Part shown: piece after piece, positions 757 to 54,540 of the stretch
How positions within the stretch are numbered: position 1 is the stretch's first letter
How the letters are laid out: each line of letters opens with the position of its first letter
DNA from: a bacterium
Lineage (GTDB): Bacteria; RBG-13-61-14; DATKZS01
Direction of reading: 5' to 3'
NCBI GenBank assembly: GCA_046484135.1
Contig: JAWOBU010000017.1
Coordinates: 18,696 to 82,695 of the forward strand
DNA: 64,000 nt
The notes under the pieces: model-generated
What the model saw: the letters and a program-made list of their open reading frames with translations, nothing else
What the model was told of the DNA's origin: nothing
The model's database searches: none
Program-made: the position numbers and the translations under genes

Positions 757-1360
757 TTTGCCCAGCGAAGCGGGCAAACCCGGCCTGCTGAAAGATGCGG
801 GCGTTGCCCCGACCAGGGGGAAGACAATCCGAATCGCAAGGGCGTCATGGTGACATGGGTCTGAAGGAAGCGACAGGAAGTGAGCGGCACACAGCGCAAG
901 CGAACCTCATTCGGCGGCGCAGGCGGGTAAGCGTGCTAAATAGCGTGAGGCCGGATTCATGGCGATGAGACAAGGATAAACAGGAGCCGTATACGAGGCC
1001 CGTACGTACGGTTCTGTGAGAGGGCTTGGGCGGGCACGATCAACCAGCCTCACCCTACTCGATCCGCGCCCGCGAGCGCAAAGACAAGCAAAGAAAACGT
1101 AAGAACAAGACTTGCAACTTTCTTCATGGTTCTCCTTATTACCCAGACGATGTTTTATGCGACACTTCTTCTGCCGGCCGAGCGGGTATGATAACATGAC
1201 ACGATCTTCGGAGAGCTTCTTGGAAAAGGAAGAAGATTGAGATGGAGGCGAAGTCTCTGGATAGCGGGGACGATCTCCCGTTTTGTTTTATCGAGACCTG
1301 GAGGTCTCTCCCGCTTTTTATCTTCGCTTTTTGCAAGAAGCTTCGGACATTAGGCAAAAG

Positions 1361-3025
1361 ATGCGGACAGTAGAGCTAGAAGGAGTGGGTTTCAAGTACC
1401 TGCGCTCAGAAGACCGGGCGCTGCGGAAGATAGACCTGTCCTGTGCCGAGGGCGAGCGGACAGCGATCATCGGCAGGACCGGCGCGGGCAAGTCAACCCT
1501 TCTCCGGTGCTGCAACCGACTGGTTCCGGCGAGCTACAAGGGAGAATTCCAAGGCACCGTCCGGCTTCTCGGTGAGGACGTAAGTGATAAAAAGCCGTTC
1601 GAGCTCGCGGCAAAGGCGGGCATGGTTTTACAGGACTTCGAGAGCCAGCTTTTCTCGACCACCTGCGAGCAGGACGTGGCGTTCGGGCCGGAGAACCTGG
1701 GACTTCCCCGCGATGAAATCAGACAACGGATCACTAACTCCTTGCGCGCTGTGGGGCTTGAAGACCTGCGCCGCCGCGATTCATCCACCCTGTCCGGCGG
1801 GCAAAAGCAGAGGCTGGCCATAGCCTCCGTGCTTTCGTTGAACCCTTCAGTGCTGCTTTTGGACGAGCCGGTTACCGACCTGGACGCGGAAGGAAGGGCG
1901 GACATAGAGTCGCTCACCGAAGATCTCTGTCAACAGGGCTTCACCGTAATCATGGCCGAGCATGAAACCGGCCTCCTCCAGCACGCGGACCGTCTTATCG
2001 GCCTTGATGGCGGAGACAAAGTCCTGGACGCGCCTTGCCGCGAGGTGTTGTGGAAGCCGGCCGAGCTCGAGCGGCTGGGGGTAAGACCGCCCGACCTGGT
2101 CGTCATCATGGACGGCCTCGGTCTTTCCGAAAGGCCGAGGGACATAAACGAAGCCGGGCGGCTCTTGCACGAGAAGGGGTTTACTCTGGAAACATTGCAA
2201 GAGGCTGAAGGCGCAGGGAACCAAGGGCCGCCTCTCATAAGCATGGAGGACGTTCATCACACCTATCAAAACGGAGTAGAAGCTTTGTCCGGCATAAGCC
2301 TTGATATCAAGGAAGGCGAGTTCGTGTCGGTGCTCGGCAGGAACGGCTCGGGCAAGACCACGCTGGTAAAGCATATTAATGGTCTTCTAAAGCCAATCCG
2401 AGGTGAAGTAAAAGTAGATGACAAAGACACGCGGGAGGCGCGGGTGAGCGAGCTTGGCCGCATGGTCGGGTTTGTTTTCCAGGACCCGGACCACCAGATA
2501 TTCGCGGGCCGGGTGTTTGACGAGGTCGCGTTTGCGCCGCGCAACTTCGGCTTCGGGGAGAGCGAGGTGAGGGAAAGGGTCGGCCGGTCGCTGGAGCTGG
2601 TGGGCTTGTCTCATAAGGAAGACGCCGATCCTTTCCTGTTGACCAAGGGGGAAAGACAAAGGGTTGCCTTGGCTTCGATCATTGCCGCGGACCCGCCGGT
2701 GATAGTCATGGACGAGCCCACCACCGGCCTTGATTACCCGGCCCAGCGCGCGGTCATGGACCTGCTGAAAGAGCTCAACCACAAAGGAACCACCGTGATC
2801 ATGATTACCCACGCCTTATGGGTAGCAGCGGAGTACGCTGACCGTTGCGTTCTTCTTCATGAAGGCCGGGTTTTAAAGGAAGGCCCTGCCCGGCTGGTGC
2901 TGACCGAACAAGAGTTGTTGAACAAGGCGGGACTGGCTATGCCGGAGGCCGCGGCGCTCGGCCTTGCCATGGGCGGTCGCGTTCTCACGGCAGAGGAATT
3001 TCTGGCCGCAACAAAAAAGGAGTAG
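1361..3025 (+). CDS. ECF-type ABC transporter ATPase with two fused ATP-binding domains (EcfA1-EcfA2 / CbiO-like). Alternative TTG start at 1283
   Basis: Two Walker A motifs (GRTGAGKST, GRNGSGKTT), two ABC signatures (LSGGQKQR, LTKGERQR), two Walker B (LLLDEP, IVMDEP). ATG at 1361 gives MRTVELEGVGFKY. Confidence 0.85.
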   Translation: MRTVELEGVGFKYLRSEDRALRKIDLSCAEGERTAIIGRTGAGKSTLLRCCNRLVPASYKGEFQGTVRLLGEDVSDKKPFELAAKAGMVLQDFESQLFSTTCEQDVAFGPENLGLPRDEIRQRITNSLRAVGLEDLRRRDSSTLSGGQKQRLAIASVLSLNPSVLLLDEPVTDLDAEGRADIESLTEDLCQQGFTVIMAEHETGLLQHADRLIGLDGGDKVLDAPCREVLWKPAELERLGVRPPDLVVIMDGLGLSERPRDINEAGRLLHEKGFTLETLQEAEGAGNQGPPLISMEDVHHTYQNGVEALSGISLDIKEGEFVSVLGRNGSGKTTLVKHINGLLKPIRGEVKVDDKDTREARVSELGRMVGFVFQDPDHQIFAGRVFDEVAFAPRNFGFGESEVRERVGRSLELVGLSHKEDADPFLLTKGERQRVALASIIAADPPVIVMDEPTTGLDYPAQRAVMDLLKELNHKGTTVIMITHALWVAAEYADRCVLLHEGRVLKEGPARLVLTEQELLNKAGLAMPEAAALGLAMGGRVLTAEEFLAATKKE

Positions 3026-8266: not shown

Positions 8267-10291
8267 ATGAAGAATCTTTTTGGTCTGCTGGCCGCGGTAC
8301 TATCAGTCCTGGTTCTGGCGATGCCCGTCCGGGCCGAGCTGCCGGAGTTCTCGGGTTCCTACCTTTCCATCCCCTGGGAGGACTTCAAAACCCTAATCGA
8401 AAAGCTGGCTGAAAAGGAGGCAGAGCAGGAAGAGGAAGAGCCGGTGCCTGCTCCCTTTGTGATCAACTCCGCCTCATATGAAGGCGAGCTTCTGGAGAAC
8501 GGCTCGGCAAGGTTCGATCTCGAGATGGAGCTGGTGGTGCTGGAGCCGGAGGCTTGGGTCATGGTCCCGGTGATCGCCGAGGGGCCTGCGGTGGAGGAGA
8601 TCAAGCTGGACGGCAAGCCGGTGCTGTCGCTTATGAAAGACGGCAGGCACCAGGTGCTATTGCAGGGCGCCGGTACTTACAGGCTTACCGCCCGTTTCTT
8701 TGTAGAGGCAAAGAACCGCGGGGGCCCGCAGTCGCTCGATTTCCGAATACCCCAAACGCCGGTAACCACGCTTTCCTTTACCATCAACAAGCCGGGCCTG
8801 GACATAACATCCCGAAATGCCGCCATGAGCCGGATAAACAACTATGAGAAGAGCACGAAGCTGGAAGCGGTGCTCGAGCCTTCCGAGCGGATAGCGCTTT
8901 CCTGGACCCGGAAGGTGGAGGCGCAGAAGGCCGAGTTGCGCCAGAACGCCCGGGTTCAATCCCTGGTGACCCTGGGCGGGCACCTTTGCCGGGTGCACTC
9001 GAGGATCAGCTACGAGATACTGCACCGGAGCGTTACCGGTTTCGAGCTGTCCCTGCCCGCGGCCGCCGAGGTCGTGGACGTCTCGGGCAAAGGCATTGCC
9101 GACTGGAAGACCGGTAAAGAGGGAGAAAATAAAATCCTCCGGATCTCCCTCGGTTACGAGGCGACCGGGAATTATGAGCTCTCCGTCAATTACGAGCTCG
9201 AGCTTCCTTCCGCTTCCGCCGGTTTCGATCTGCCCGAACTCGAGACGAGGGGAACAACGCGCGAGACCGGTCACATCGGGGTCATGGCCGGGACCAACAT
9301 CGAGGTCCGGGTGAAAGAGGCGGCCGGGCTTGCTTCCATTGACGTGTCCGAGCTTCCGTCATTTATCCGGGGAAAAGGCTCGCCGGTCATTCACGCTTTC
9401 AAGTACCTGGAACACCCCTGGCGGCTGGCGCTGGAAACCATCAGACACCGCGATATAGAGGTCTTGACCTGTACCGTAGACAAAGCAGCGCTCACGAGCT
9501 TTGTCTCCCGGGAAGGCGAGTTCGTAACCCGGGCCGTCTACACCATCCGGAACAACCGCGAGCAGTTTATAAAGGTAAAACTGCCGGAAGACGCGCGGCT
9601 GTTTTCTTCCTTCCGCGACGGGACGCCGGTACGGCCTTCGCGGGACAAAGACGGGAACGTGCTTATTCCGCTTGCAAAGTCAACCGGAGATTCCGGCAAG
9701 GCCAGGTCCTTCAAGGTCGAGATCGTCTACATGGTGAAGCTTCCCGAGCTTGACGAAGACAAAGGCTCGTTACAGCTCGAAGCTCCTTCCACCGACCTGT
9801 TGACCAACCTGTTGCAATGGAAGCTTTACGTGCCGGAAGACTACAGCTACGAGGTTGAAGAGTCCAGCCTGCAAGAGAAAGAAAGGGAGACCCCCTATAT
9901 CATGGGCCATGAAAGCCTTTTAAAAGAATATGAAGAAGCAGCTTCTAAAAGCGGGAAAAGAAAAGATGAAGGCGGCCTTCTGCTGGGAAAGTCCGCCCAG
10001 GTTCCCAATATCTATCAGTACGAAAAGCAGAAAGCTTATACACCCGTATCCCTCCCGGTCCGGTTTATGCTGCCGGAGTCGGGCTTAGTGCTCGAGTTCT
10101 ACAAGGCGGTGGTGCAGGAAGGCGAAAAGAACTCCGTAACCTTGAGATATGACAAGCCCTCCGAGTTGTGGTCCAAGCTGTGGAAGGCGCTTGTTGCCGG
10201 GGGAGCGATACTGGTGTTGGTTGTGCTCTTCTGGATCATTGTCCAGGCGGAAGCGCGGGGCAGGAAGAGGGACCGGGAGGTGTTGAAATGA
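8267..10291 (+). CDS. Large secreted protein with C-terminal membrane anchor, unknown family (paralog A)
   Basis: 674 aa; signal peptide MKNLFGLLAAVLSVLVLAMPVRA; Glu/Pro-rich linker EEEEEPVPAP; beta-rich body; C-terminal TM helix LVAGGAILVLVVLFWIIV then basic tail RGRKRDR; RBS aaggagac. Confidence 0.7.
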   Translation: MKNLFGLLAAVLSVLVLAMPVRAELPEFSGSYLSIPWEDFKTLIEKLAEKEAEQEEEEPVPAPFVINSASYEGELLENGSARFDLEMELVVLEPEAWVMVPVIAEGPAVEEIKLDGKPVLSLMKDGRHQVLLQGAGTYRLTARFFVEAKNRGGPQSLDFRIPQTPVTTLSFTINKPGLDITSRNAAMSRINNYEKSTKLEAVLEPSERIALSWTRKVEAQKAELRQNARVQSLVTLGGHLCRVHSRISYEILHRSVTGFELSLPAAAEVVDVSGKGIADWKTGKEGENKILRISLGYEATGNYELSVNYELELPSASAGFDLPELETRGTTRETGHIGVMAGTNIEVRVKEAAGLASIDVSELPSFIRGKGSPVIHAFKYLEHPWRLALETIRHRDIEVLTCTVDKAALTSFVSREGEFVTRAVYTIRNNREQFIKVKLPEDARLFSSFRDGTPVRPSRDKDGNVLIPLAKSTGDSGKARSFKVEIVYMVKLPELDEDKGSLQLEAPSTDLLTNLLQWKLYVPEDYSYEVEESSLQEKERETPYIMGHESLLKEYEEAASKSGKRKDEGGLLLGKSAQVPNIYQYEKQKAYTPVSLPVRFMLPESGLVLEFYKAVVQEGEKNSVTLRYDKPSELWSKLWKALVAGGAILVLVVLFWIIVQAEARGRKRDREVLK

Positions 10292-12306
10292 AAAGGACCT
10301 TACTGATCGTGGTGGGGGCGCTGTTGATCGCCTGTCCCGCTTTTGCAAGCGCGAAAGAGCTTCCCGCGCTTTCCGGAGGCAAGGTGATCCTGTTATGGAC
10401 GGACTTCGAGAAAATTCTGCGGGAGTACCTGGAGGAGGAGCCGGAGGATGAGCCGGAGCCGCCGGCGGGCTACTCCTTGCAGGACGCTTCCTTCCGGATA
10501 CGTGTCCGGGACGGCTTTGCCGAAGTCATGGCAGACTACCAGCTTCGAGTTCTTGCTCGCGGATGGGTGTCCGTGCCGATAGGGAAGAGGCAAAGCGGCA
10601 TAAGCGAAGTCAAGGTCAACGGCGAACCCGGCATGTTAAGGGAAGACTCCGGCCGGGTCATGCTGCTTTTGAAAGACCGGGGCCAAAGAAACCTTCGTGT
10701 CCTCCATACCGTGAAGGCCCCCCAGAAGCCGGGCCCCAACTCCTTTTACGTGCCTCTCTTTTCGGTGCCCGGAGCGAAGTTTGTGCTCACGGCTTCCGCC
10801 GAACTGTCCGATATCACCATATCCGACGCCGTCATCACCAGACAGGAGAAGAAGGAGAAACAGTGGAGGATCGAAGCGGTTTCCGGGACCATTTACGACC
10901 TGCGCGTGAATTACAGCGTTCCCGCGCCGGAAGCCGAGGGAGCTGAGAAAGAAGAGGTCCCTCCCAAGGTATACTCGAACACTCAGACCCTTCTTACCAT
11001 CTCGGACGAGGTGACCACCGCGAGGGTGGACCTTTCCTACGACGTAAAGCACAATCCAGTAACCGGCTTCGAGATCGAGCTGCCCGAAGATTACGAAGTT
11101 ATAGAGGTGGATGGAAAGGGAGTCGCCGGCTGGCAGGTTGACGAGGGAGTGCTTCATGTCAACGCGGGCTACGAGGTCACCGGCTCCTATGAGCTTGGTC
11201 TTCGCCTGGAGAGCCAGCGGGGAAAGGCCTCCGGCAAGGTGTCGCTTCCGGAGGTCTCCACACGGGGCGTGGAGCGGGAGACCGGCTACGTGGCGATTGT
11301 GACGAGCTCGAGCCTCGAGGTCAAGATTGACTCCATTAAAAACCTCATGCCCCTGGACGTGTCCGAGCTGCCGTCCGGGTTACGGCGCAAGTCCTCCTAT
11401 CCGCTTCTTTACGGCTTTCGCTACGTGCGCCGTCCCTACTCCGGCAGCATCAACGTAAAGCGGCACCAGGAGCTCGAGGTGTTAAACGCGGCCATTGATA
11501 TCGTCAACCTGGTTACCGTGTTCACCAACGACGGGAAGTCGGTGAGCAGAATCATATACGAACTCCGGAACAACAAGAAGCAGTACATCAAGATAGACCT
11601 GCCCGGCAAGGCAAAGGTGTGGAGCGCATATCTTGACGACAAGCCGGTGAAGCCGACCAGGAACGATACGGGCCAGGTGCTGGTGCCTTTGAAGAAGTCG
11701 GGTGCAGACAAGCGCGCCAGTTTTACGGTCGAGCTTATCTATTACGCGCCGGTGCCGAAGATGGAGGAGACGGGCTCGCACCTGGTGAAGATGCCGCGAG
11801 CGGACATACCCGCTTCAGAGATGCTCCTGTCCCTGTACCTTCCGCCGCACTACGAGTACGACGATTTTGAAGGAGACCTGGAAAGAATCGAGGAGGTGGA
11901 AGACCGGCAGATGAAGGCGGAAGCGGACAAGCCGCGGGAAGAGACAAAGGCCAAGCGACAAATCTACTCCAAGCGGGCCCTGGAGCGGCAGTCCAAGATG
12001 GAAATGGAGATCGCCGAGCAGGTCCAGCAAAAGGCGAAAAAGCCCGCACCCGCGCCTGCGCTCGACCGGGAGCGGCAAGCGGAAAGGCCCCGCGGAATGC
12101 TGCCGGTGAAGTTCAACGTGCCTTTGCGCGGCAGCCCCTTCCGGTTCAGCAAGCTTATCATCATGCGCGAGTCTCCCGAGCTCACTTTCAGTTATGAAAA
12201 AGAAGATGAAGGAAAAGGGCTGGTTTACCTTGTTGCCGGCCTGGCAATCGCGGTGATTGTTGTGACAGGGCTCTTGATTCTAAGGAAAAGGAAGACCGTA
12301 ACATAA
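10288..12306 (+). CDS. Large secreted protein with C-terminal membrane anchor, paralog of 8267..10291 (paralog B). The track start 10168 is an upstream extension
   Basis: ATG overlaps the upstream stop (ATGA). MKRTLLIVVGALLIACPAFA signal peptide; EEEPEDEPEPP linker; colinear similarity to paralog A (e.g. RHQELEVLNAAIDIV.. vs RHRDIEVLTCTVDKA..; YELRNNKKQYIKIDLP vs YTIRNNREQFIKVKLP); C-terminal TM + RKRK. Confidence 0.7.
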   Translation: MKRTLLIVVGALLIACPAFASAKELPALSGGKVILLWTDFEKILREYLEEEPEDEPEPPAGYSLQDASFRIRVRDGFAEVMADYQLRVLARGWVSVPIGKRQSGISEVKVNGEPGMLREDSGRVMLLLKDRGQRNLRVLHTVKAPQKPGPNSFYVPLFSVPGAKFVLTASAELSDITISDAVITRQEKKEKQWRIEAVSGTIYDLRVNYSVPAPEAEGAEKEEVPPKVYSNTQTLLTISDEVTTARVDLSYDVKHNPVTGFEIELPEDYEVIEVDGKGVAGWQVDEGVLHVNAGYEVTGSYELGLRLESQRGKASGKVSLPEVSTRGVERETGYVAIVTSSSLEVKIDSIKNLMPLDVSELPSGLRRKSSYPLLYGFRYVRRPYSGSINVKRHQELEVLNAAIDIVNLVTVFTNDGKSVSRIIYELRNNKKQYIKIDLPGKAKVWSAYLDDKPVKPTRNDTGQVLVPLKKSGADKRASFTVELIYYAPVPKMEETGSHLVKMPRADIPASEMLLSLYLPPHYEYDDFEGDLERIEEVEDRQMKAEADKPREETKAKRQIYSKRALERQSKMEMEIAEQVQQKAKKPAPAPALDRERQAERPRGMLPVKFNVPLRGSPFRFSKLIIMRESPELTFSYEKEDEGKGLVYLVAGLAIAVIVVTGLLILRKRKTVT

Positions 12307-12496
12307 TCGAGCCGGCGGTGGACTTTAGAGGGATGCAGTCGGTGAAGTTCCCCCAAAATTTCTCGTGTTACTCTCGCGTCCTCTTTGAAAAAGCACAGAT
12401 GCCTCGGGGCTGAAGTGAAAATGGAAAAACGCACAAGCTGCCGGGGCGTGCATGAGCCGCGGACTGTGGTGTAGGCCATGACTCCTTTTCGCAAGC

Positions 12497-12713
12497 CGGC
12501 CTGCACAACCCCCGGAAGAGGGGGTGACGTCCATGGCCGGTACGCGAATTTGGCCCGCACAACCCGCGGAAGATGGCCCGCACAACCCCCGGAAGATGGC
12601 CCACACAACTCCCGAAAGATGGCCCGCACAACTCCCGAAAGATGGCCCACACAACTCCCGAAAGATGGCCCACACAACTTGTTGTGTGGGTGATTGAAGA
12701 TCATGGGAGAATC
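12497..12713. repeat. 23-bp tandem direct repeat array (one degenerate copy, then six tight copies of ggcccRcacaacYcccgRaagat) ending in a perfect palindrome
   Basis: Six consecutive 23-bp units at 12552-12689. Upstream degenerate copy at 12497-12519. The final unit converts into the palindrome cccacacaac-tt-gttgtgtggg (12692-12713). Confidence 0.85.
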
Positions 12714-12816
12714 CGCTTCAATTGGTAAAGTACACGAAGAAGACCGGATGGTTTGATGCCGGAGGGATGCGGCAAACATCTTTTACAATGTACCTGCAGA
12801 CCCACTTCGTGAGTCT

Positions 12817-12840
12817 GCCCACACAACAAGTTGTGTGGGC
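12817..12840. repeat. Second copy of the palindrome gcccacacaac-aa-gttgtgtgggc
   Basis: Perfect 11-bp arms, about 105 bp downstream of the first palindrome. Adjacent 5-bp stem hairpin cagac..gtctg. Confidence 0.8.
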
Positions 12841-13004
12841 CATCATGGTGGCTGAGTGGTGTACTCCATTGGACAAAGAAGAGTTGTAAATGGCCGATTG
12901 GAAACTTAAGACAAACGGTCCTGCTTGCCGGTGCCGCTGATGGAGTGACTGGCCGGACATAAAAAATGGGGGAATTTCATGATGCAGTCGCCTTTGACCA
13001 CGTC

Positions 13005-13784
13005 TCAAGCGAGCATGCGGTCCAGGAAATCCAGGATTTCCAGGACCCCTTCGGTCTCTGCCTTGTTTGCTATCAACACGGTGCCGGAGATGAGGTCAGG
13101 AGCTTCCATCAGGGGAACGGCGTTCCTGCCCGCTTTCTCGAGCAGCGGCCGCAGTTCGGTGGCAATGTTGGCGGGCGCCAGCGAGAAATGAGAGTCGGCG
13201 AGCAGGTCCTGGTCGTTCATGGAATCTGCGACCCCGATGATCTCCCGGTCGCCCGCTACCGCGGCCAGGCCGGTGTACTTGTTGTAGCCCACCGGCAGGA
13301 TGTCCACGGCCACCGACGAGTAAGTAACCTGCACCCGGTCATGAAAATTCGAGTCCCCCACAAACCCTTCGATCTTCTCATGCAAAGAACGCGGATCATC
13401 GCTGAACATGGAAATGGTGGTAAGCCGGTGCGCGAAGTAATTGATTTCCGGAAAAGACTGCGCCCGGAGCTGTCCCTCCAGCTCCCAGATGGTCTTGAGC
13501 TCTTCCTTGGTGGTCAGAATCTTTTCGGTCTCGCCGTCCGGGCTCAAGGAGCAGCCCGTCTCGAGAACGTAGCCGTCCACCTGTTCGAGTATCTCGGGCG
13601 GGACCTTCTCTTTTACGAACTTAAGATCGTTGCCGGTGCAGATAAACCGGCTGATCCGGTCTTTTATACGGGCCAGCCCTTCACTGACCATGTTGACCAG
13701 CTCGGGACGGATGACCTCGCCCGGCTCCAGCAGCGTTCCGTGTAAGTCAAGGCCCAGTATGTAAGCGGGTTCTGTTTCTACCAT
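13005..13784 (-). CDS. HAD-superfamily hydrolase (subfamily IIB / Cof-SPP-like)
   Basis: 259 aa; motif I LGLDLHGTLL (DxH instead of DxD); motif IV GDSMNDQDLL. Confidence 0.7.
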   Translation of the reverse strand: MVETEPAYILGLDLHGTLLEPGEVIRPELVNMVSEGLARIKDRISRFICTGNDLKFVKEKVPPEILEQVDGYVLETGCSLSPDGETEKILTTKEELKTIWELEGQLRAQSFPEINYFAHRLTTISMFSDDPRSLHEKIEGFVGDSNFHDRVQVTYSSVAVDILPVGYNKYTGLAAVAGDREIIGVADSMNDQDLLADSHFSLAPANIATELRPLLEKAGRNAVPLMEAPDLISGTVLIANKAETEGVLEILDFLDRMLA

Positions 13785-14624: not shown

Positions 14625-14653
14625 TTGACCAAAGTAAAAATCTTTAGTACAAT
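14625..14653 (+). promoter_or_regulatory. sigma70 promoter TTGACC-17-TACAAT for the cytochrome/porin operon, giving a leader of about 280 nt
   Basis: ttgacc 14625-14630, 17-nt spacer, tacaat 14648-14653. Confidence 0.45.
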
Positions 14654-14804
14654 TCTTCCAGTCTCCGAGTCGTTCTTCCCTACAGCAGGAGAAAATGCCA
14701 AGGGAGGCGACCGAAAGGCCGCGAGGGAAACCTCGCGACCCCCCGTGCTTGGAAAGGAGATGTGAGGCCACGGCTTATACAAGCTCGTGGACTGCGCATT
14801 ACAC

Positions 14805-14936: not shown

Positions 14937-16220
14937 ATGAAAAGGAATGAATGGAAAAGGAAAACATTTGTCTTACTGACAGTCATGTCTTTTGCAATAG
15001 CAGGAGGCATGGTATTTATCCAGGGCTGCGGTTCTTCTGATGACGGCAGTGGTGACATGGTCTGCTCGTCGCGGGCCTACAAGGGGCACGCTTCGGACCG
15101 GGACATCAACAACTTTGTTCAGGTATATCCCCACACGGTGGGGACCCGGCTGGACGACTGCCAGACCTGCCACACCGGAGGAGAGATCACCGTAACAGAA
15201 ACCGAGGGCAACACCACGGAAGTTGAGACCGAATGGAAGAACTCTTGCGATTATTGTCATTACATCCCCTATCCGCCGGAGCCTCACAGCATAAGCGGCG
15301 AGACGGTTACCGGGTATCCCAAGACCTATTACGATACCTTGAACGGCTACGGCAAGGACTACATGGACAATGGCCGGGACAAGGGCGCCTTGACCACCAT
15401 CGCCGGTCTTGACAGCGACGGGGACAGCTTTTTAAACCACGAGGAGATAGCGGACCTCCGTTACCCGGGGGACTCCGGCAGCAAGCCCGGACAAAAGCTT
15501 TGTCCCATGCGCACGGTCACCGTATCCGAGCTCAAGGGCATGACAGCTCATTCCCAGTTTATGCTGGCCAACACCACCAAGCAGCAGTTCGACTTCTACG
15601 CCAACTGGAAGGGAGTAAAGATCATAGACATCCTGCAAGGAGAAAGCGTAGACCTTAGCGGCGCGAAAAGTATTGATATCCTGGCGCCGGACGGTTTCAC
15701 CAAGTCCTTCAGCGTAAGCGAGATCACGGACCAGTACCCTTACCATAAGTTTTTCAGCGGCTTCGGGGCGGCTGATCTCGGCAGCGACTGCGCCTTTGTC
15801 GAGTATCCGGCTGACACCCGCGGTTATGCTTACGGCGACACCATCACTGATGACCAGTACCATATCCTGGCCTACGAGCGCGAGGGACAACCCCTGGAAG
15901 AATCTTACCTGGACCCCTCTTCCGGCAAGATCGGGGGGGAAGGACCGCTTCGCAATATCATTCCGCCGGGGGCTACGGACGACCAGTACAACCAGCCCGA
16001 TCGCGGCAAGTACGCGGACACCAGCGGCTGTGGTCTTCCAGAGTGGGACTATGACTTCAACAAGGACCACAACGCTCACAACATGGTCAAGGGCGCGGTG
16101 ATCATCCGCATCCAGCCCATGCCGACGGGTTGCGAGGAGTTCGACATCAACAACGGCGGCTGGGCCCTGATTGACGCGGGCGAGCTTCTGATCTACGGCC
16201 ACGGCGTCACCGCGGAGTAA
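14937..16220 (+). CDS. Diheme c-type cytochrome lipoprotein with Ca-binding-like DxDxDG segment and a C-terminal domain of uncertain fold (possibly sulfite-oxidase-family Moco-binding-like)
   Basis: Signal peptide + lipobox-like IQGC; two CxxCH (CQTCH, CDYCH); DSDGDSFLNHEEIADL; strong RBS aagggagg. Confidence 0.75.
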   Translation: MKRNEWKRKTFVLLTVMSFAIAGGMVFIQGCGSSDDGSGDMVCSSRAYKGHASDRDINNFVQVYPHTVGTRLDDCQTCHTGGEITVTETEGNTTEVETEWKNSCDYCHYIPYPPEPHSISGETVTGYPKTYYDTLNGYGKDYMDNGRDKGALTTIAGLDSDGDSFLNHEEIADLRYPGDSGSKPGQKLCPMRTVTVSELKGMTAHSQFMLANTTKQQFDFYANWKGVKIIDILQGESVDLSGAKSIDILAPDGFTKSFSVSEITDQYPYHKFFSGFGAADLGSDCAFVEYPADTRGYAYGDTITDDQYHILAYEREGQPLEESYLDPSSGKIGGEGPLRNIIPPGATDDQYNQPDRGKYADTSGCGLPEWDYDFNKDHNAHNMVKGAVIIRIQPMPTGCEEFDINNGGWALIDAGELLIYGHGVTAE

Positions 16221-49995: not shown

Positions 49996-51771
49996 TCAGT
50001 CAGGCTGCCGGTTGACGTAAATCTGCTGGGCTATCCCCACCATATTCTGTACGGTCCAATAAATCAAGAGACCGGCGGGAAAATTGCGCAGGATGAAAGT
50101 AAAGACGATGGGCATGGCCAGAAACAGCTTGGCCTGGGTCGAGTCCATCTGGGTCGGCGTCATCTTCTGGGTAACAAGCTGGGTGGCGCCCATGGCGATC
50201 GGCCAGATGTAGAGCGGGTCGCGGCTGGAGAGGTCTATGATCCACCACATAAATGGAGCGTGCCGAAGCTCGATGGATATGAGCAGCGCCTTGTAGATGG
50301 CGAAGAAGACCGGGAACTGAAGAAGCATGGGAAGGCATCCCATGGCCGGGTTCACCTTGTGCCGCTTCCACAGGGCCTGGATTTCCTCCTGCTGCTTCAT
50401 CTTGTCGTCTTTGTACTCTTCCCGGAGCTTCTTGATCTCCGGCTGGAGCTTCTGCATCTGCTTCATGGACTTCTGGCTCGTGCGGGTCAAGGGAAACAGC
50501 GCCATCCGGATGATGATGGTCAGGATGATGATGGCGACCCCGTAATTGGGAATGACCTGGTGCAGGTAATAGAGCGCTGTTATAAGCGGCTTGACCAGGA
50601 CCCCCAGCATGCCGTAATCAATGGACTGGACCAGGCTGTCCTTTACCGGTCCCAGGATGCGCTCGTTCTTGGGGCCCATGAATACCCGGACGCCGGCGAG
50701 TGTTCCCTGTTGTATCTCCTCGCCGGTGGCCGGCACCCTTACCCAGCCGGTCAGGGTCCTGGTCTCGTCCTCCTCCTCTTTCTCGTTGCCGGTGTACTTG
50801 ACCTGGTAGGAGAAGTCGTTCTCGGACAGGACCGCGGAAAGGAAGTAATCAGAGGTAAACCCTGCCCACTCCAGGTTCTCGACCACTATTGATCCATCGT
50901 CCACCACGTCGTCCGGGTCTATCTTTTCCAACTTGGCGGCCATGGCGATAGGGCCGTTGAAGTTCCAGCGGGGCACGCCCGCCTTCAGGCCGGGGTCGTA
51001 AGTATAAAGCATGGATATGTCCGCCCGGGCCCGGTTGGGCTTCTCTCCCTCGATAGTATAAGTGAGGTCCACCGCATAGGAGGAGTTGGAAAACCGGTAG
51101 GTTTTATGTACGACCCTGCCGTCGTCCAGCTCGGTTTTAAAGGAGACCTCGCCTTCGGGGCGGTCGTCAGTAAGCTCGAGGTCGGACGACTCGATCTCCC
51201 AAACCTCCCAGGGGTCCACCTCGATCTTGTTGTCAATGGAGAGCTGGCTGTTCAGGGTGTAGTAATAGGGGGCCTTGCTTTGATCAATCAGGTCCACCGG
51301 CGAAGGATCGCACGGAGGATCGGTGTCCACCGGCGGCCAGGCAACGTTCACCTGGACGGGAAAGCACTTCTCGTTGTTATACTCGAGCAGGTACCAGTGC
51401 TTGGGAGCCGCTCCCACATTGGTGAACTCGACCTCGAAGACCTCGGTGGAAACCGAGACCGTCTGTTCCATCTGTTCTATCTTTGGTTGTTTTTTCGCTT
51501 GCGGCTTTTTGCCGGTGTCGCGTTGGTCGGGCAGCTCCGCAGGGCCTTCCGAAGGCACAGTGGGAGGGGGTTCGTCTTTTAAGCCGCCTGCGGTGTCTCC
51601 GGCGGGCGGGCTTACGGTAGAGCCCGGCCGGCCCTGTTTGCTTACGGTAGAGCCGGGGCGGCCCTGTTTGCCGGCGGGGGCGGGTTCGAACTGGTCGCCG
51701 TAAAACATCATCCATAGCATGACAATGCCTACGGTCAGGATCATGAATATGATTAAGTTCTTCTCTTCCAT
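49996..51771 (-). CDS. yidC: Membrane protein insertase YidC
   Basis: 591 aa; N-terminal TM, large periplasmic domain, conserved C-terminal 5-TM core (...RHAPFMWWIIDLSSRDP...). Confidence 0.9.
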   Translation of the reverse strand: MEEKNLIIFMILTVGIVMLWMMFYGDQFEPAPAGKQGRPGSTVSKQGRPGSTVSPPAGDTAGGLKDEPPPTVPSEGPAELPDQRDTGKKPQAKKQPKIEQMEQTVSVSTEVFEVEFTNVGAAPKHWYLLEYNNEKCFPVQVNVAWPPVDTDPPCDPSPVDLIDQSKAPYYYTLNSQLSIDNKIEVDPWEVWEIESSDLELTDDRPEGEVSFKTELDDGRVVHKTYRFSNSSYAVDLTYTIEGEKPNRARADISMLYTYDPGLKAGVPRWNFNGPIAMAAKLEKIDPDDVVDDGSIVVENLEWAGFTSDYFLSAVLSENDFSYQVKYTGNEKEEEDETRTLTGWVRVPATGEEIQQGTLAGVRVFMGPKNERILGPVKDSLVQSIDYGMLGVLVKPLITALYYLHQVIPNYGVAIIILTIIIRMALFPLTRTSQKSMKQMQKLQPEIKKLREEYKDDKMKQQEEIQALWKRHKVNPAMGCLPMLLQFPVFFAIYKALLISIELRHAPFMWWIIDLSSRDPLYIWPIAMGATQLVTQKMTPTQMDSTQAKLFLAMPIVFTFILRNFPAGLLIYWTVQNMVGIAQQIYVNRQPD

Positions 51772-52490: not shown

Positions 52491-52646
52491 TTACTTCCGG
52501 GCATTGGGAACCTGCACCGATACTCTTTCACGTCCCTTCCGGCGGCGCCTTTTTATCACCTTTCTTCCGCCTTTGGTGGCCATCCGGGCCCGGAAGCCGT
52601 GGGTGCGGAGCCTCCGCGTGTTATGAGGTTGATACGTACGTTTCAT
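52491..52646 (-). CDS. rpmH: 50S ribosomal protein L34 (below the ORF-track length cut-off, so not listed there)
   Basis: Minus-strand translation [51 protein letters not shown] (51 aa) matches L34. TTGAAC-17-TAAATA promoter-like sequence upstream at about 52680-52715. Confidence 0.8.
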
Positions 52647-52853
52647 TTTGAACTCTCCGGGAAAAACCTTTAGAGGTATTAATATTTAGCACAACTTACC
52701 CCGTGGTTCAAGCGGTCAAGGCGTGGAGTTCCCCCAATTTTCAAAATTCCTGAAAGCTTTAGACCTCCCGTAACCCGTGGGTGATACTATGTAGCAAGCC
52801 TCCAGTCGGGTAAAATAGGGACAGAAACCATAAAAACGAAAGGAGGCTTGCAA

Positions 52854-53874
52854 ATGAGGTACGTAGGTTTGGACTACCACTTGAAGAGGTCGACGTTTTG
52901 TGTGTTGGACGACAACGGGAAGAAGCTTTTATTCCCGCGAAGTCCGGGGCACAGCATCTAAAGTAATCGAGGAGCTTTCCAAAGTCAAGGAGGAATCTTC
53001 GGAAGCCATGTCGATCTGTTTCGAGGCCAGTAGCGATTCCGGCCATCTTCACGATGCTTTAAAGGGGATAACGGAGCATGTCCAGGTGGCCCATCCCGCC
53101 AAGCTTCGTCTCATCTTCCAATGCAAGAAAAAGAACGACCAGGTTGACGCCCGCAAGCTGGCGACCCTGTTGTTCCTGGACCAGGTCCCCCCGGTTTACG
53201 TTCCCGCCTCGGAAGTGCGGAACTGGCGGCAGACAATCGAATATCGCGTCCGCCTCGTCAACAAACGTACGCGCGTCAAAAACGAGATACGTTCTTTTCT
53301 TCGCGTTCAGGGAGTAAAGGCCCCCAAAAAGCTCTGGTCCAAAGCCGGGCTTTCCTGGCTTTATTCTCTGGAGTTCGAGCAGGAAATGATTTCAACTCGT
53401 CTTTCCATGCTTTTGGATGAGCTTAAAAACCACGAGGAGAACCTTCGTAAAGTTGAGAAGGCCCTGGGCCGGGAAGCCAAACGGAATGCGGGCGTTCAGC
53501 TTTTGATGACGATTCCCGGTGTGGGCATCCGTACGGCAGAATGCCTTGTTGCTTATATAGACGACCCGGCTCGTTTCAGCTCCAGCAACGAGTTGGCGGC
53601 ATATTTTGGTCTTGTGCCCATTCTTGATTCCAGCGCGGGCCGCGATCGTCTCGGACACATCACCAAGCAGGGTCCTCCCACTGCTCGTCGGCTTCTTGTC
53701 GAGTCATCTTGGGTCGCTGTCCGCCGTTCTCCCACGATCCGTGCAAAATTTGAACGAATCCAGAAGGGAGACCCGGACCGGAACAAAATTGCGATTGTGG
53801 CAATAGCGCATTTTCTGGTTCGTGTTTCTTTGAGTCTTTTGAAGAAGGGTGAGGTGTGGGAAGAGTCGTTGTGA
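52854..53874 (+). pseudogene. IS110-family transposase, frameshifted (N-terminal 35 codons in frame 52854, remainder in the track ORF 52900..53874)
   Basis: MRYVGLDYHLKRSTFCVLDDNGKKLL (DEDD-type IS110 N-terminus) then stop. The other frame continues ...SREVRGTASKVIEEL... The frameshift is at a T-run near 52935-52945. RBS aggagg at 52841. Confidence 0.7.
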
Positions 53875-54540
53875 TGGCAGGAACGGTCCGCCCGTCTAGT
53901 CGGCGCATCTCCGACGAGCTCGATGGGGCCCATTCTCGTCGCGCCGCCTATCCGGGCGATCCTTAGTGGCGATTTCAAGCTTGGGGTGGTTTTTCGGAGC
54001 GGCCCTTGAGCAAGAGTCTCGATCGGGATACGGGATGAAAATAACCGGACCTCGTGGGTGGGCCTGGCGGTCGAACGCCGTTTGGGTGAATGAGGCTGGT
54101 CTCGAATCTTGAATAATGGCGCGTCTTAAGAGGCGACGTCGAATAGATGGCTGGGGACTTCCCGTAAAAAATCCTGTGCCCGACTTGACAAAGGCTTGCT
54201 CATAGATGCTCATAGATGGCCCACCCATCCTTCCAAGGATGGGTGGGTTTACAGGTTCAAAAAAGATTGATTACTGAATCATAGCGTAGTATTACACCCT
54301 ACTGGGACTAAGCTGTCACCCCGCCCGTTCGCAGACGAACGAGTGGGCCACCCCGAACTCAACCCCATATCTCGTTTTCACAATTTCGTTGTTACAAGAG
54401 AGTAGTCTTAAAATGAAAATTGGAATCCAACAAGAAAAAATGGGGGAACTCCTTAGTCAAAGAGTTGTCAGGCCCGAAGATTCGATAAGAGCAGTAGTAG
54501 GGGGTGATGTAAATATTTATGTGTGATGCCTTTGTAAAAA

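Follow-up and report, generated by a model that had tools for sequence, protein, structure and literature searches.

In the window, meaning the whole 64-kb stretch of DNA that was analysed, two ORFs at 10168-12306 (+) and 13005-13784 (-) converge on a gap of 698 bp, in keeping with the roughly 700 bp given in a preliminary description of this DNA. The (-) ORF is a HAD-type hydrolase, for which 88 homologues were found, and some 800 bp from the repeat array discussed below there is a gene for a response regulator. On the other side of the gap stand two large adjacent ORFs of 674 and 712 aa (8267-12306); neither has a match in Pfam or NCBIfam, and the second ends in a transmembrane helix.

The gap contains a tandem array with a 23-bp period, reported by Tandem Repeats Finder at 12551-12679 (5.6 copies, 94% matches). 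The array proper comprises five tandem units on the (+) strand (12551-12663), and the last unit continues into a perfect palindrome, P1 (CCCACACAAC-tt-GTTGTGTGGG, 12669-12690). The array, its palindromic end and a degenerate upstream copy had all been noted previously and are confirmed here. That copy (12498-12520) is accompanied by weaker ones at 12445-12463 and about 12531-12550, the latter found by reading the sequence directly and the other two by a repeat-family search, in which they are 73-85% identical to the units; these decayed copies are all on the (+) strand 5' of the array (span 12445-12550). Each 23-bp unit consists of a REP 5' tag (GATGG), the left arm of the hairpin formed by the palindrome (hairpin 1; CCC[A/G]CACAAC) and an 8-nt linker. 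Units proximal to P1 are identical or near-identical to its left half, those farther away deviate from it at up to four positions, and beyond these, upstream, only the decayed copies are found. The half-site that had been ascribed to every unit, GGCCCACACAAC, is present in three of the six; in the other three it is replaced by GGCCCGCACAAC. With at most one mismatch, the 12-mer GGCCCRCACAAC occurs nine times in the window (0.78 expected), every time at the array locus, a count reached in none of 100 shuffles. The periodicity stops directly after CACAAC-T, at the C|T of the hairpin loop.

A second palindrome, P2 (GCCCACACAAC-aa-GTTGTGTGGGC, 12817-12840), does exist downstream of P1 as the preliminary description had it, but at a distance of 126-127 nt from the end of P1 (149 nt from start to start) rather than 105 bp. 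Furthermore, the two palindromes are not simple copies of each other. Together with their flanks, they form a perfect 27-nt inverted repeat (12664-12690 / 12818-12844), whose sequence is GATGGCCCACACAACTTGTTGTGTGGG on one side and its complement on the other. Each belongs to a larger REP module made up of a tag and two hairpins. In the P1 module (12664-12703, +), the tag GATGG is followed by hairpin 1 (12669-12690) and by hairpin 2, TGATT-GAA-GATCA (12691-12703), which requires one G-T(U) wobble. In the P2 module (12797-12844, -), the corresponding parts are the tag GATGG (12840-12844), hairpin 1 (12817-12840) and hairpin 2, CAGACTCAC-GAA-GTGGGTCTG (12797-12817). Thus oriented, the P1 and P2 tags point outward, as in a head-to-head dimer. 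Between the two inverted modules is a spacer of unique sequence (12704-12796), which has no similarity to any fetched locus, no Rfam match, and no ORF with a family match. When folded as DNA, the P1 module yields two adjacent hairpins (z = -3.8); in a single-stranded DNA fold of 12490-12850, P1 pairs with P2 as a long 27-bp stem (z = -4.55).

Several readings of the array have been set aside. As stated previously, it is not a CRISPR array, given that one unit directly follows another every 23 bp, with no spacers in between. A replication origin or iterons of the plasmid or phage type were rejected, there being no rep or par gene, DnaA box or AT-rich stretch at the locus, where the GC content is 0.50-0.59 throughout. 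A sponge RNA of the CsrA type was dismissed because the youngest units lack GGA. Finally, a coding function for the gap was ruled out, since its ORFs, of 71, 55, 96 and 184 aa, have no family match in Pfam or NCBIfam.

The whole filler of the intergenic gap is a 639-bp segment, E1 (12342-12980). The 10-mer GATGCAGTCG is found exactly twice in 64 kb (0.13 expected), and both copies abut the ends of E1 as left (12332-12341) and right (12981-12990) target-site duplications. Just inside, a left terminal inverted repeat, G-TGAAGTTCCCCCA-AAAT (12342-12359, +), pairs with a right one, AAAATGGGGGAATTTCA-T (12963-12980, -), the latter identified by a repeat search and a count of end motifs. Within these repeats, a 13-nt inverted repeat (12343-12355 / 12967-12979; TGAAGTTCCCCCA vs TGGGGGAATTTCA) matches at 12 of 13 positions, and the order at the boundaries is GATGCAGTCG-g-TGAAGTTCCCCCA ... 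TGGGGGAATTTCA-t-GATGCAGTCG. In addition, the end motif GARNTTCCCCCAWWWT occurs four times in the window (0.10 expected), arranged as two inverted pairs at 12344/12978 and 52725/54452. Given its terminal inverted repeats, the 10-bp duplication and the paired end motif, E1 bears the marks of a MITE-like insertion, which would have expanded a convergent spacer of about 59 bp to 698 bp. An alternative offered in the preliminary description, that the repeats are the remnant of a mobile element, was in this respect essentially right.

Relatives with 81% and 63% identity in the HAD protein do not provide an alignable empty site: similarity to the window ends at the HAD stop codon, and the gene order differs. 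Because the relatives diverge at this stop codon and have other genes downstream, the gene order shifts exactly at E1. In the nearest of them, the HAD gene is followed downstream by YbjN and glycosyltransferase genes, whose place is taken here by the 674- and 712-aa ORFs. Searches with blastn gave no match to the whole of E1 in plasmids and phages, and no autonomous partner sharing the ends of E1 was found. A transposon end of the Tn7 or Mu type, with multiple binding sites, was also considered for the array and rejected, since there is no adjacent transposase and the array lies about 150 nt inward of the terminal repeat.

The second pair of end motifs delimits another element, E2 (52723-54454, +), which has the same termini as E1 (GTGGAGTTCCCCCAA ... 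TGGGGGAACTCCTT) and holds an IS110-family element and a REP-like doublet. The E2 flanks, GGTCAAGGC and AGTCAAAGA, match at six of nine positions when read from the sequence, which is consistent with a decayed target duplication. E2 is situated about 75 nt upstream of the start of rpmH (52491-52646), a gene of an rpmH-rnpA-yidD-yidC cluster on the (-) strand. In many bacteria, dnaA and the origin occupy such a position next to rpmH; no dnaA is present near the cluster here.

The insertion sequence in E2 belongs to the IS1111 group of the IS110 family (52779-54208, +; Pfam DEDD_Tnp_IS110 and Transposase_20) and stands directly 5' of a REP hairpin, REP-A. Its ends were set by comparison with copies of 95% identity from four independent contigs. 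It is 1430 bp long, with a left end of 76 nt, a right end of 334 nt (53875-54208) and sub-terminal inverted repeats CTATGTAGCAAGCC / GGCTTGCTCATAG; a short left end, a long right end and sub-terminal inverted repeats have been described for the IS1111 group (PMC11208160). The long right end should hold the bridge RNA, and no Rfam match was obtained there. The transposase in the window is frameshifted near 52930, and an intact 339-aa version (P0093), 93% identical, is present on four metagenome contigs.

Beyond the insertion sequence, a hairpin search and folding reveal a second head-to-head doublet, with a (+) half, GATGG-CCCACCCATCCT-tcca-AGGATGGGTGGG, at 54215-54247 and a (-) half, GGTGG-CCCACTCGTTCG-tctg-CGAACGGGCGGG, at 54320-54352. 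Without the insertion sequence, E2 would measure about 302 bp, and all that E1 and E2 have in common is their termini and the tag-CCCAC starts of their hairpins. The window thus contains four hairpin units at two loci only, E1 and E2: a scan of the 64 kb for a tag followed by a perfect hairpin gave no site outside these loci, and GRTGGCCCAC, present six times in the window (0.55 expected), is confined to the same two loci.

IS1111-group elements sit at the tag/stem junction of these hairpins both in the window and on nine further contigs. Every copy within this clade of insertion sequences either has a REP hairpin directly after its right end (...GCTCATAGATG) or splits such a hairpin. In the window, a 10-bp tandem duplication (CTCATAGATG, 54197-54218) is formed by the right end of the insertion sequence and an identical REP 5' flank. 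The module is an insertion target of an IS110/IS1111-family element, in agreement with the published finding that elements of the IS110 family target REPs (PMC11208160, PMC12288879).

These associations could be taken further by supposing that the module is an accessory of IS110/IS1111 elements, either with E1 mobilised in trans by a bridge recombinase, in the manner of ssr9/ISPpu9, or with the array representing bridge-RNA target sites left by repeated insertion and excision. Modular mobilisation has been documented for ISPpu9 (PMC12288879), the element in E2 sits exactly at the REP-A tag with its 10-bp duplicate at the junction, every copy of the clade is next to REP hairpins, and the AGATG|GCCCAC junction at which insertion occurs is present in each 23-bp unit. 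However, the sharp boundaries of the insertion sequence leave out both the terminal repeats and the hairpin doublet, and the copy in the window is frameshifted. Recombination in the IS110 family is described as scarless, leaving target duplications of no great length (PMC11208160); E1, in contrast, shows terminal repeats as well as a duplication of 10 bp. Furthermore, beyond AGATGG, E1 shares no sequence with the ends of the insertion sequence. An accessory role of this kind is consequently considered unlikely.

The distribution of the module in other genomes was assessed with a palindrome scan (CCACACAAC-NN-GTTGTGTGG, one genome per species), which returned 15 loci. In six of these (L001-L004, L006 and L012, from Planctomyces, Lachnospira, Bacteroidales and others), the palindrome is isolated, in unrelated taxa and without common flanks; lacking the tag and the second hairpin, these six were treated as unrelated. 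The rest are alike beyond the palindrome itself. The MAG CAYWKU01 has 15 module copies at five loci (40 kb of sampled loci), and identical copies occur on three contigs of CAZTAS01, a Thermodesulfobacteriota MAG, at contig ends in two of the three. No match to the palindrome was found in viral contigs. In all 24 oriented copies from other contigs, the 5' tag G(A/G)T(A/G)G-C is followed by hairpin 1, with hairpin 2 directly adjoining. The tag, on one side of the hairpin only, reads ATGG in the window, ATAG in CAYWKU01, GTGG in CAZTAS01 and GTAG in L148.

Both hairpins are maintained as structures. The stem of hairpin 1 is 10-11 bp, with a loop of 2 nt that is TT in the 24 oriented copies except for a single TC; in the window, its site in E1 lies between convergent ORFs. 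Its arms vary together, as in CCCACACATC/GATGTGTGGG, CCCATGCAAC/GTTGCATGGG and CCCACATAGC/GCTATGTGGG: in an alignment of ten distinct copies, every cell (100%) is paired, and four of the ten pairs have compensatory double changes. None of 500 shuffles matched this covariation score, and slid controls showed none. Hairpin 2 differs between genomes but is always self-complementary, with eight different stems, examples of which are TGAGCT-tc-AGCTCA, GAGCC-gaa-GGCTC, GCGCC-gaa-GGCGC, GTGAGC-gaa-GCTCAC and GCGGCCC-ttg-GGGCCGC. All eight canonical modules examined fold as two adjacent DNA hairpins.

The same regularities had led the preliminary description to propose an array of iterons or half-sites together with two operators bound by a dimeric DNA-binding protein, specific to this locus. 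In such a model, the 23-bp units and the palindromes would serve replication or partition control, or would bind a local transcription factor. The regular half-sites with a period of about two helical turns, the perfect dyad symmetry of the palindromes, and the nearby response regulator gene are what such a protein would lead one to expect. However, the palindrome and its flanks are dispersed and multi-copy in other MAGs, the behaviour of a REP-type element that had been named as the contrary case, and they occur there around RAYT-like ORFs. A double-stranded operator also leaves a structurally covarying second hairpin unexplained. In addition, E1 and the DNA next to it contain no gene of the rep, par or transcription-factor kind, the site is contained in an insertion bounded by inverted repeats and a target duplication between convergent gene ends, and the operon of the response regulator and HAD genes in relatives has no such site. 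The locus-specific operator is therefore abandoned as very improbable.

The link to RAYT-like ORFs comes from metagenome contigs. In L007 and L142, two inverted modules, with hairpin 2 facing inward as in the window, surround one short ORF, and their hairpins are identical or compensated versions of the window hairpin. The ORF matches NCBIfam NF047646 (REP-associated tyrosine transposase) with E = 5.8e-13, at a score of 49 bits that is below the curated cutoff of 80; the match spans the C-terminal third of the model, and the N-terminal half is absent. L143 has a RAYT-like ORF followed by two tandem modules. Such ORFs (L007, 322-546; L142, 1558-1854; L143, 1-285; P0089) are 74-98 aa long, correspond to the C-terminal half of the model only, share 62-84% identity among four metagenome contigs, and always have inverted REP modules on both sides. 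Their database relatives, too, are limited to 94-98 aa. These short ORFs represent either a conserved mini-protein or a widespread truncated pseudogene. Within the 64-kb window, tblastn found no RAYT gene.

A role at the RNA level must also be weighed. In this model, the region would be a structured small RNA or an element at the 3' end of an mRNA, stabilising or terminating the transcript of the upstream 712-aa gene, with the repeats providing alternative pairings. REPs have been reported to stabilise mRNA (PMC3733652), and the wobble pair in hairpin 2 of P1 would be acceptable in RNA. Moreover, the module is co-oriented with transcription in prophage intergenic regions of CAYWKU01. These regions (L008 and L014, contig 2 of the MAG) belong to a prophage structural module of terminase, Mu-like portal, cement protein and capsid genes; they are about 500 bp long and dense in the REP module and in other repeated hairpins, e.g., GGGCGACA-agag-TGTCGCCC-CTACCAT, co-oriented with the genes. 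Against an RNA function, P2 is on the opposite strand, so that the doublet is symmetric in DNA and not in a single transcript. GAA triloops with a C-G closing pair are well suited to hairpins of DNA, which is likewise counted against RNA. P1 is not followed by a U-tract, and the only terminator-like site is weak, at the level of shuffled sequence. Finally, Rfam, at both gathering and permissive thresholds, has no match at the array locus or in the region of the insertion sequence. An RNA element is thus regarded as quite improbable.

Taken together, these results have led to a different explanation, which is considered probable: that the palindromes are REP-type hairpins within a MITE-like insertion of 639 bp, and that the array arose by local amplification of the left half of one hairpin, the whole being selfish rather than regulatory DNA. 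P1 (+) and P2 (-) would form a head-to-head doublet able to fold into one long hairpin, a REPIN-like unit, and in the source genome this doublet would be a cargo of E1 rather than free-standing. The array itself would be a tandem amplification of the P1 tag, left arm and 8-nt linker. Since the distal units have progressively decayed, the sequence suggests that growth took place at the end proximal to P1. Replication could have slipped at the stable hairpin, or an enzyme of the single-strand HUH/RAYT type could have cleaved and rejoined the DNA aberrantly at the loop C|T, with cuts at CAAC|TT and C|TCCCGAAAGATGG. The enzymatic route is entertained because the periodicity breaks at C|T, the dinucleotide that characterised RAYTs cleave (PMC8266576). 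In either case, the array is taken here to be a by-product, not an array of binding sites. Tandem orphan left arms were absent from about 25 other module copies sampled, in which the arms are always paired. A metagenome scan for GCCCACACAAC N5-30 GCCCRCACAAC gave at least 120 loci, none with the palindrome among the matches listed; those tandem-left-arm matches that were inspected are unrelated coding or satellite repeats.

A more specific conjecture is that the array is the footprint of a HUH/RAYT-type or bridge-recombinase reaction at the hairpin, which could have been repeated cleavage at the loop C|T with rejoining to a C|T upstream of the tag, and, more broadly, that REP doublets in this lineage spread as the cargo of cut-and-paste MITEs. 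This is considered unlikely. If true, a DDE-type MITE, RAYT/REP and an IS1111 target, three mobility systems in all, would be coupled in a single element of 639 bp.

The probable reading, REP-type hairpins carried by a MITE-like insertion, has parallels in described systems. With the REP/REPIN/RAYT systems ("REPtrons"), the module shares its short, perfect palindrome, the tetranucleotide-type tag 5' of this palindrome, the arrangement in head-to-head doublets and an extragenic convergent site (PMC3733652, PMC3116915, PMC8266576); it is also multi-copy and dispersed in related genomes, with inverted copies around a RAYT-like ORF, and such a REPtron layout has been described for REPs (PMC8266576, PMC3116915). 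The tag is different, being ATGG, ATAG or GTGG rather than the canonical GTAG; the degenerate tags GTRG and GTGG have been described, and ATGG is absent from the variants listed (PMC3733652). Further differences are that the second hairpin is obligatory, that the RAYT-like ORFs reach only 74-98 aa, and that doublets in the source genome were seen only in elements bounded by terminal inverted repeats, at two loci in 64 kb. Most REP dimers in the literature have a head-to-head arrangement with a distance of 20-100 bp, and clusters are often tandem with flanking DNA (PMC3733652, PMC3116915); next-neighbour distances of 71 and 110 bp characterise Pseudomonas REPINs (PMC3116915). The spacer here, at 127 nt, is longer than the usual 20-100 bp. 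In having tandem REP-containing units and flanking DNA beside REP doublets, the locus resembles BIMEs and tandem REP clusters (PMC3733652, PMC3116915). However, BIMEs repeat whole REPs or REPINs, often alternating, whereas only the tag and left arm are repeated here, directly and with a 23-bp period. Because published clusters repeat whole REPs or REPINs, the half-REP array is an unusual variant.

Like a MITE, E1 is non-coding and short, ends in inverted repeats of 13 bp, is flanked by a perfect 10-bp duplication and has a second copy with the same ends in the window. Unlike a typical MITE, the two copies have almost no internal sequence in common beyond the termini and hairpin tags, and the cargo is a REP-type doublet. 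The resemblance to the REP-targeting IS621, ISPpu9 and ISPpu10 of the IS110/IS1111 family lies in the insertion of an IS1111-group element at the hairpin tag/stem junction (PMC11208160, PMC12288879). Neither the array nor E1 contains IS110-family sequence, and the relation is one of target to insertion sequence.

If the probable reading is correct, a candidate regulatory or origin site would be reclassified as selfish repetitive DNA, and uncultured Thermodesulfobacteriota-like bacteria would possess an apparently undescribed two-hairpin REP family, linked to RAYT-like ORFs and targeted by the IS1111 group. REP doublets would, moreover, be carried inside a miniature element bounded by terminal inverted repeats and target duplications. 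The half-REP array, a single example, may record the processing of hairpins by enzymes or by replication, and would thereby bear on how REPs and REPINs proliferate.

A few other features of the window were recorded. Molybdenum-cofactor riboswitches were matched at 14651-14775 (+) and 21726-21863 (-), with 59.7 and 74.6 bits, respectively; the first precedes two ORFs, one multihaem cytochrome-like (14937-16220) and one porin-like. At 982-1063 (+), Rfam matches a group II intron domain (44.8 bits, gathering threshold 40) a short distance upstream of the ORF of an ABC-transporter ATPase (1283-3025), with no adjoining intron-encoded protein seen. Lastly, a 30-bp tandem repeat (51610-51671, -; 2.1 copies, 93% matches) lies in the N-terminal part of the yidC-like ORF (49996-51771).
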